From: Octopus vulgaris | Lineage: Eukaryota | Direction of reading: 5' to 3' | DNA length: 64,000 nucleotides | Assembly (NCBI GenBank): GCA_951406725.2 | Contig: OX597814.1 | Coordinates: forward strand, 77,934,001 to 77,998,000 | In this document: positions 8,365-11,504 of the stretch, piece by piece | Numbering within the stretch: the stretch's first letter is position 1 | Layout of the letters: every line of letters starts with the position of its first letter | Notes under the pieces: model-generated | Database searches by the model: none | What the model was told of the DNA's origin: nothing | Seen by the model: only the letters and a program-made list of their open reading frames with translations | Program-made: the position numbers and the translations under genes

Positions 8365-8457
8365 AAATATTATTAGAGACAAAACCACTATTTTGCAAAA
8401 CAAACAAGGAAAGACTTAATCAATACATAAAATTTTAATAAATAGTCAAAAAAACCG

Positions 8458-8500
8458 CCACTACAATCGTTTCTTGTCTTGATCGACAATCTTCAGGTGG
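8458..8500 (-). ncRNA. Minimal type I hammerhead ribozyme
   Basis: Reverse complement of 10939-10981. Confidence 0.85.
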
Positions 8501-10938
8501 ACTTCAATCTAAAATATCAATATTTTAAAATATACAAATAATAATTTTAAAATAATTAAAGTATGAATGAAAAAATATAAATATATAATCCATATATAAC
8601 CTATATATAATCCATATATATAATCGATATATAAACAATATATAAACTAAAATAAACCTATCAACAATTAAATATAAAATATAAAATATAAAACAAAACA
8701 AAAAAATAATAATAAAATAATAATAAACTATATATACACCCATACACATATACCTAATTATATATAACCATATCTAACTACATACACTAAACCACACACC
8801 TATATATATATCCCTATACATACACATAAAAACGTCTAGGCAACTATAAATAAATAAAATAGCTAAATACTTCAACACAATACTTATTCATACTCCCACA
8901 CACACACACATACAACCCACATTCACGCTCTAGAAAACGGACATCACTCAAAATTATGAACGGAGAAATGGAATAAATGGAATTGAAAATTATATTCACT
9001 TGGTAAAACGAACACTACTTAAAAATTATGAATGAAACAATGCAATAAAACAACAGACATCGCAAATATACACAAATTACTACGAATTCCTTAACAAACC
9101 TACCATGATAAACCAAAACTCACAAAAACATATAATGATAAAATCTCCCTTTACTAAACTCTATAACATACCTATATAGCAATCCCCCTAACCTAAACAT
9201 TCACACACAAATACACACACGTAAACCACACACCCACGACATATACAAATACCCACACCACTTACACATACCAATACATACATATAAACCTCAACATATA
9301 CTCCAAAAACCCACTCAACCCCACACAGACAAATAAACACAAAAATTATGAATGGATTCTTTTATAAAACTACCATGATAAGCTAAAACTCACAAAACAG
9401 AAATGATAAAACCTCCCTTTACTAAACACTATAACATACTTATATAGCAATCCCTTTAACCTATACATTCACACACAAAAACACACACGTAAACCACACA
9501 CCCATAACAAATACAAACACCCACCCCACTCACACACACCCACAAGTACATATAAGCCTCAACATAAACACCAAACAAAATTACTTTACCAAGGAACTTA
9601 ACATATGTATAAAAAGTATAACCACTCCGGAAACGAACATCTCTAAATTAATGAATGGAGAAATGGAATAAATGGAATTAAAAATAATATTCACGTGGCA
9701 AAACGAACACCACTCAAAAATTATGAATGAAACAATGCAATAAAACAACCAACATCGAAAATAGACAAATTACCACGAATTCCCTAAAAAAAAAAAAAAA
9801 AAAAAACCATGATAAACCAAAACTCTTAAAAACATACAACGATAAAATCTCCCTTTGCTAAACTCTATAACAAACCTATATAGCAATACCCCTAACCTAA
9901 ACATTCACACACAAATACACACACGTAAACCACAGACCCACGACTTATACACATACCTATACTAACTTATAAACCTCAATATACACCAAAATCCACTCCC
10001 TCCACACACAGACAAATTAACACATACATCCCAAAACCTAAATAACAAACCCATATACACATTCACACACAAACACACACACAGGCAAAACACACACACA
10101 CAACAGATACATATACTCCCTCACATATACGCATATACATACTCACTAAACTCGATATATACAACAATATTTACACACCCACACTCATACAGATAAATAA
10201 ATTATACAACTAAAAACTCACACACAATCTCATATACATAAACACTCCTATGAAAACAACATTAAATACATCGTAATTAACCAGAATATCAAAAATAACA
10301 ATATGACATAAGGATAAATAAAATACATACTTACAAGTCAGTTTCAAATTATAAAGTGAAATTAAATTCTTATATTTGCGATGTCTGTTGTTTTATTGCA
10401 TTGTTTCATTCATAATTTTTAAGTAGTGTTCGTTTTACCAAGTGAATATAATTTTCAATTCCATTTATTCCATTTCTCCGTTCATAATTTTGAGTGATGT
10501 CCGTTTTCTAGAGCGTGAATGTGGGTTGTATGTGTGTGTGTGTGGGAGTATGAATAAGTATTGTGTTGAAGTATTTAGCTATTTTATTTATTTATAGTTG
10601 CCTAGACGTTTTTATGTGTATGTATAGGGATATATATATAGGTGTGTGGTTTAGTGTATGTAGTTAGATATGGTTATATATAATTAGGTATATGTGTATG
10701 GGTGTATATATAGTTTATTATTATTTTATTATTATTTTTTTGTTTTGTTTTATATTTTATATTTTATATTTAATTGTTGATAGGTTTATTTTAGTTTATA
10801 TATTGTTTATATATCGATTATATATGAATTATATATAGGTTATATATGGATTATATATTTATATTTTTTCATTCATACTTTAATTATTTTAAAATTATTA
10901 TTTGTATATTTTAAAATATTGATATTTTAGATTGAAGT

Positions 10939-10981
10939 CCACCTGAAGATTGTCGATCAAGACAAGAAACGATTGTAGTGG
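10939..10981 (+). ncRNA. Minimal type I hammerhead ribozyme
   Basis: CCAC-CTGAAGA-TTGTC(gatcaa)GACAA-GAAA-C(gatt)G-TA|GTGG: full canonical core, 4-bp stem I, 5-bp stem II, GUA cleavage triplet. Confidence 0.88.
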
Positions 10982-11504
10982 CGGTTTTTTTGACTATTTA
11001 TTAAAATTTTATGTATTGATTAAGTCTTTCCTTGTTTGTTTTGCAAAATAGTATTTTGTCTCTAATAATATTTTATAATATTTTACTATAAAATTGGATA
11101 TCCTAAATCTGATTTTTTTCCCTGTAAATTTGGATTTATTCCCTAATATTTATTATATATATATATATATATATATATATATATATATATATATATATAT
11201 ATATATATATATATATATATATGCATATATATATACATATATGCATATATATATACTATATGCATATGTATGCATATATATATATATATATATATATATA
11301 TATATATATATATATATATATATATATACACGCCATATTTATGTTTATATATAATAACGAGAAAGATAGACGGCATGAAAGGCATTGTTAATGTGTCTAC
11401 GTCCCTGAAACTTAGCGGTTACACACCCTGGTTAGTGGTCCGAAGATCTTTTCTGCTCACCAAGCATTGTCACACACTGTTGACTTTTGGGGGCGACTAA
11501 AAGA

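Follow-up and report, generated by a model that had tools for sequence, protein, structure and literature searches.

The window analysed here is a stretch of 64,000 nucleotides of the Octopus vulgaris genome (assembly GCA_951406725.2, contig OX597814.1, positions 77,934,001 to 77,998,000 of the forward strand; all coordinates below are counted from its first letter). Penelope-like elements (PLEs) account for 6.83% of this genome, with 190 families (PMC13282606). At the left end of the window lies a coding PLE, PLE-A (1..8262, forward strand), with ORF1, a reverse transcriptase (RT), a GIY-YIG domain and a 3' UTR/pLTR of 2.16 kb, used here as a comparator and not as a member of the pair described next. 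Across a (TA)n tract from PLE-A begins the first of two fold-back elements, each made of a long body (2.0 or 2.5 kb) and a head-to-head inverted copy of the body's own 3' end. In member 1, a 5'-truncated, non-coding body of 2006 bp (8365..10370, reverse strand), where G/T-rich repeat modules precede a terminal region, faces an inverted, likewise 5'-truncated copy of 703 bp (10371..11073, forward strand), 99.7% identical to the end of the body; the short arm is prolonged by a tail of 82 nt (11074..11155, forward strand), which forms a predicted hairpin. Member 2 has the opposite orientation, with a tail of about 85 nt (27755..27840, reverse strand), an inverted 5'-truncated copy of about 391 bp (27841..28231, reverse strand) and a 5'-truncated, non-coding body of 2522 bp (28232..30753, forward strand). 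The inversion junctions thus fall at 10370/10371 and 28231/28232, and in both members the long arm is the plain end of a collinear body.

The two arms of a member are almost the same sequence. Those of member 1 (8365-9070 against 10371-11073) align with 701 matches, 2 substitutions and 2 gaps in 706 columns, those of member 2 (27841-28232 against 30361-30753) with 391 matches, 1 substitution and 1 gap in 393 columns. Arm length is unequal between the members (703 against about 391 bp), the 5' break points differ, and the segment 30243-30360 of member 2 matches the arm of member 1 past the limit of member 2's own arm. An overlap of 2 nt is possible at the junction of member 2, as judged solely through a paralogous module. 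Self-comparison of the 64-kb window shows that the members match one another over most of their length, and it returned no other match to either of them at 60 bp or more. An earlier reading of the sequence alone (the sequence-only reading) had proposed that each inversion formed at insertion, and the figures agree: divergence is 0.3% between arms and, over the 400 bp that precede the hammerhead, 6.7% between members. If the calibration given in PMC13282606 applies, where a divergence of 0.09 stands for 25 million years, the insertions would be roughly 0.4 million years old or less.

The same reading had rightly described near-perfect inverted arms and had overlooked that the layout is lopsided, with a tail of 82-85 nt on one side only. 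In both members the tail belongs to the short arm and is absent from the body, and both the end of the body and the end of the tail fall on identical bases in the two members. Constraint increases towards this end: substitutions between the members amount to 25 of 372 sites upstream (a count that depends on how low-complexity DNA is aligned), 2 of 95 from the cut site to the body end, and 0 of 82 in the tail, where the single difference is a 3-nt indel at the predicted hairpin loop (Fisher p 0.013 for the tail, 0.003 for the tail together with the segment from cut site to end). Folding of the tail gave a mixed picture (z -2.16 in member 2, +0.19 in member 1). A 21-codon open stretch within it was dismissed as coding, for it has no ATG; indeed the whole 82-85 nt lack an ATG, which PLE-A has 35 nt past the end of its pLTR. 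All four element ends lie in (TA)n: a tract of 106 nt (8260..8365), common to member 1 and the 3' end of PLE-A, then 69 nt to the right of member 1 (11154..11222), 20 nt to the left of member 2 (27737..27756) and 42 nt to its right (30753..30794). As a consequence, target duplication is unreadable.

A scan of the whole window for type I minimal hammerheads of the C3-G8 kind found exactly four, one per arm and all pointing outward, where 100 block-wise dinucleotide shuffles led to a mean expectation of 0.02. In member 1 they occupy 8458..8500 (body, reverse strand, predicted cut after 8462) and 10939..10981 (arm, forward strand, cut predicted after 10977); in member 2, 27933..27975 (arm, reverse strand, cut predicted after 27937) and 30619..30661 (body, forward strand, cut predicted after 30657). 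The initial description of two ORF-free fold-backs tipped with outward hammerheads and ending in (TA)n therefore stands, coordinates included. The core, stem I, loop II and stem III were also recovered as first described, and the cuts after 10977 and 30657 were predicted again. Loop II and stem III do vary between members as had been reported, and a third difference had been missed, a U.U at the base of stem II in member 2 where member 1 has U-A. Stem III had been called palindromic in member 2, which is correct, yet the octamer of member 1 is self-complementary too, through G.U pairs (-5.8 against -6.4 kcal/mol), so that both members are compatible with the dimer model. From cut site to body end there are 96-97 nt, and above the hammerhead the non-coding sequence extends over 1870 nt in member 1 and 2387 nt in member 2.

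These motifs share with metazoan PLE hammerheads (PMC4209133; the Hydra-clade table in file S2 of PMC8557442) the type I topology, a stem I of 4 bp, a short self-complementary stem III and an arrangement in pairs on opposite strands; unlike them, they have a stem II of 4-5 bp and a loop of 6 nt. The extra U before stem II of member 2, with a U before GAAA, recurs in many rows of that file S2 and in L001, one of the related loci discussed below. Rfam recovered no hammerhead among 140 matches at E<=1 in the window, and nothing at E<=10 on 10850-11160. Single-strand folding lends no support to a stable monomeric hammerhead (z -0.20 and 0.03), and the hammerhead fold is not the one of minimum energy. 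When the whole of member 1 is folded, all 43 of the 43 hammerhead bases pair with the opposite arm, and the tail stays outside the duplex. Minimal hammerheads are described as cleaving poorly, and as dimers (PMC4209133). The motifs probably travel with the pLTR as passengers, with weak activity in the monomer and a likely dependence on dimerisation or on protein.

Neither body holds an ORF. The longest stop-to-stop frames hold 82 and 89 low-complexity codons, and tblastn gave no match between the bodies and the PLE proteins encoded in the window. Strand composition is strongly biased (T 46-49%, G 23%, C 6-7%). Internal repeats are present, as had been noticed, and they are modules of 130-490 bp with 72-89% identity rather than units of about 200 bp; their order differs between the members and no hammerhead core is found inside them. 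Both bodies break off within this repeat array, which places the 5' end of the family outside our view. Moreover neither body is headed by a pLTR or by a second hammerhead, so that no complete non-autonomous unit is in view.

PLE-A is an instructive neighbour. Its RT and endonuclease were recognised by Pfam (RVT_1, E 4e-08; GIY-YIG, E 2.5e-05), with ORF1, RT and GIY-YIG in three frames, and its nearest named relatives among 783 hits are proteins of Octopus bimaculoides (83% and 65%). Its CxxxxCxxC linker and overlapping ORF1 suggest, at the level of sequence, the Neptune group. The element is young. Near 3790, where the sequence is T-rich, its ORF1 and its RT frame overlap, which may reflect a programmed frameshift. 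The direct pLTRs (the 5' one at 710-2463, forward strand) differ by 0.3%; an inverted arm at 1-712, which runs off the start of the window, differs by 0.7% from its partner and extends a mere 95 bp into the ORF. The scan found no C3-G8 core in PLE-A, which carries instead a U3-A8 variant of the minimal hammerhead on the forward strand, one per pLTR (2335-2373 and 8139-8179), with a GUU cut site and a palindromic stem III. Stem II of the 3' copy is interrupted by a 2-nt insertion, and this copy does not pass the strict scan; 0 of 2000 shuffles of 1741-2465 contained the motif. The two halves of a flanking pair, ACTCGTG/CACGAGT, are predicted to form a hairpin that spans the pLTR end. Here the hammerhead comes 2044 nt past the stop codon, with 86 nt from the cut site to the (TA)n end, and the first 1.47 kb of the 3' UTR (T 43%, G 29%, C 8%) have a bias like that of both bodies. 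As a partner of the pair PLE-A had to be rejected, its 3' end having nothing in common with theirs beyond low complexity.

Elsewhere in the window, a decayed PLE at about 22320-24275 (reverse strand) has the DKT motif, a feature of the Hydra clade (PMC8557442). It retains an old inverted pLTR pair (23986-24115 and 24141-24275, 15% diverged), with a degenerate hammerhead core at 24110, and it makes a third head-to-head case in the window. This Hydra-like relic too was rejected as a partner, having no 3' sequence in common with the two members. A further inverted repeat pair, 42387-42975 and 46406-46961, is about 8% diverged, separated by 3.4 kb and devoid of (TA)n flanks. Two fragments on the reverse strand, 13769-14679 and 41400-42021, presumably resemble the 3' ends of ORFs of non-LTR retrotransposons; Pfam had no match for the two of their frames that were submitted to it.

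Relatives were looked for in several collections. In an index of sequencing runs, 16 of 24 runs, from 8 studies and under 4 organism labels, had word shares of 0.27-0.52, a range that low-complexity words may inflate, and the count sets aside 4 rows with a small share and 4 with a share near zero; no RNA run was among those listed. These shares give a hint that the family may be multi-copy in related species. Pattern scans gave no match in viral contigs and none in two metagenome scans. Forty-three related PLE loci came from genome contigs and none from viral contigs. Their records (L001-L043) are filed as bacterial genomes, with PLE-like RT sequences and, in several cases, hammerheads after the ORF; they are likely host DNA contaminating bacterial assemblies. 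The C3-G8 scan identified a hammerhead in 5 of the 43, and one more, in L002, was found by eye. The end of the present family matched none of these 43 loci (best 20 nt, E 0.33).

How did these structures arise? Taken together, the inverted 5' copy, the one-sided tail, the hammerhead and the (TA)n flanks are the published signature of PLE insertion, in keeping with the early proposal of PLE machinery and (TA)n targeting. An inverted 5'-truncated copy with a tail on one side is described as the usual PLE arrangement (PMC8557442; PMC3846280), and opposite-strand hammerhead pairs have been ascribed to truncated PLEs (PMC4209133). The pair resembles insertions of endonuclease-bearing (EN+) PLEs (PMC3846280; PMC8557442) in its head-to-head inverted 5'-truncated copy, its tail at one end, its hammerhead near the 3' end, its (TA)n targets and its lack of a discernible target duplication. 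By contrast with those insertions, the tail measures 82-85 nt rather than the published 30-40 bp, and at least 2.4 kb of non-coding sequence built of repeats stands above the hammerhead; both copies are devoid of an ORF, so that their clade cannot be read directly. On balance we consider it probable that the two members inserted recently and independently, each as a 5'-truncated copy of the long 3' UTR/pLTR that belongs to an autonomous endonuclease-bearing PLE, with the coding part of the source likely not reached in either case. Truncation at 2.0 kb would make a copy of PLE-A resemble member 1, and it is the position of the PLE-A hammerhead, 2.04 kb past the stop in similar G/T-rich sequence, that makes us favour a truncated 3' UTR. 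With a coding element of similar layout next door, the pair is probably ordinary, and because that element has a UTR longer than 2 kb, the absence of an ORF is no proof of non-autonomy.

Biochemistry provides a plausible route to such a structure. A PLE protein studied in purified form in vitro cleaved and extended the two strands of its target, preferred AT-rich DNA and had two internal start points for reverse transcription on the RNA, one at either limit of the tail; hammerhead cleavage was not required (PMC11167929). The steps that follow are inferred from published PLE biochemistry. The RT-endonuclease would bind a conserved RNA region around the hammerhead and the tail, by analogy with the characterised protein, and would nick both strands of a (TA)n tract. 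Two cDNAs would then be primed from the opposite nicks, one at the end of the tail, the other at the end of the body; both would stop early, and joining of their 5'-truncated ends would create the fold-back. This two-primer mechanism is borrowed from PAc, a Poseidon-clade element of Anolis, in which two fixed 3' end-points likewise bound the tail and targets are AT-rich; priming on both strands in the PAc manner would yield just such a fold-back (PMC11167929). PAc differs in that its tail lies inside the start of the ORF, while the tail here is without ATG and twice as long (PMC11167929). In a read-through transcript the hammerheads would, as modelled, be locked in the arm duplex, so that the copies are likely dead on arrival. 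That such a transcript would form long dsRNA, as had been suggested, is sound in principle.

Several observations count against the truncated-UTR reading. Within the window no copy joined to an ORF was seen, and there are two copies only. The 2387 non-coding bases of member 2 exceed the longest stop-to-hammerhead distance measured, the 2044 nt of one element, and in relatives from other sources (L001, L002, L003, L007) this distance is about 0.15-0.5 kb. The tail is twice the published length and, unlike the sequence past the PLE-A pLTR, has no start codon; the repeat modules are rearranged between the members, as is possible in non-autonomous elements; and neither PLE of the window has 3' sequence in common with the pair.

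The same material can be read, more tentatively, as the trace of a true non-autonomous PLE family, with a non-coding RNA of at least 2.5 kb made of repeat modules and the hammerhead-tail region as its only cis signal. An autonomous partner whose 3' end matches would move it in trans, and the mechanism of insertion would be the same. We see this reading as possible but doubtful. It would explain why 2.0 and 2.5 kb pass without an ORF, and why two source lineages about 7% apart were both recently active, with rearranged interiors and a near-invariant end; the length of member 2 above the hammerhead, beyond that of PLE-A and of relatives from other sources, and the ATG-free tail are counted in its favour as well. 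Precedents exist: pLTR-flanked sequence is mobile in trans (PMC3846280), and non-autonomous PLEs have been described, among them MRC1 of Chlamydomonas (PMC8557442) and others in butterflies (10.1101/596502). MRC1 resembles the pair in having PLE-type ends and no ORF; elements of its type, however, are organised as pLTRs or in head-to-tail copies and share their 3' end with an autonomous family (PMC8557442), neither of which is seen here. The 3' end of the pair had no match in the PLE-A 3' UTR beyond low complexity, no long match in the rest of the window and none in the 43 related loci. The interruption of both bodies inside the repeat array, with the family's 5' end beyond reach, weighs against non-autonomy, as does the want of a pLTR or second hammerhead at their head, and the coding PLE-A demonstrates that more than 2 kb of such sequence can belong to a coding element. 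In its boldest form, which we hold to be rather unlikely, this account would speak of an octopod family of PLE parasites, non-coding, at least 2.5 kb long and assembled from shuffled repeat modules, trans-mobilised via a near-invariant 180-nt signal of hammerhead plus tail, with an 85-nt hairpin tail twice the known length, and routinely landing as perfect fold-backs of 0.4-0.7 kb that seed dsRNA.

That the inversions are artefacts of assembly or library is very improbable. The arms are 99.7% identical, to be sure, and PLE structures of this kind are known to trouble assemblies (PMC8557442), but the arms are not identical, two loci of opposite orientation have both end-points in common, and two unrelated PLEs of the window are also head-to-head, one with arms 15% diverged. 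Even less credit can be given to non-LTR retrozymes, in which hammerhead-flanked monomers would be excised, circularised and re-inserted. The pair does have type I hammerheads, no ORF, internal repeats and a link to PLE pLTRs, from which retrozymes have been proposed to derive, in common with them (PMC7229834; 10.64898/2026.07.22.740005). Yet retrozymes are described as short head-to-tail units of 51-972 bp with a hammerhead in each (10.64898/2026.07.22.740005; PMC7229834), whereas here at least 2.5 kb go by without a second sense hammerhead, the repeat modules have no core, the defining tandem of hammerhead-bearing units is absent, and the motifs sit on opposite strands, one sense motif on each, so that no monomer or circle could be released; in read-through RNA the motif is moreover predicted to be buried in duplex. 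The retrozyme-like character first attributed to these elements has accordingly been abandoned. Similarly remote is a foldback DNA transposon with long terminal inverted repeats, to which the long near-perfect arms, the repeat-rich interior and the TA flanks might point, but for arms of variable length rather than fixed, symmetric terminal repeats, an arm that is a collinear piece of the body (30243-30360 of member 2 against the arm of member 1), ends made asymmetric by the one-sided tail, and a hammerhead placed, as in PLEs, about 96 nt before the end.

The architecture, the type of ribozyme, the targeting and the idea of non-autonomy are all already in print. The exact sequence and motif had no match in the supplements of PMC8557442 and PMC13282606, and literature searches did not return the family, which may well be catalogued already in Repbase, Dfam or the Octopus repeat libraries. 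From a single window, non-autonomy should not be assigned to ORF-free fold-backs tipped with hammerheads; if it were shown, it would add a long SINE-like partner to animal PLEs. As read here, the pair is what PLE retrotransposition ordinarily leaves behind in a PLE-rich genome and, together with PLE-A, it shows that 3' UTRs longer than 2 kb can occur among the PLEs of this genome. It defines a strongly constrained cis signal of 180 nt, and it is a clean genomic footprint of the model of two start sites and two-strand priming, beyond the Poseidon clade in which that model was tested in vitro.
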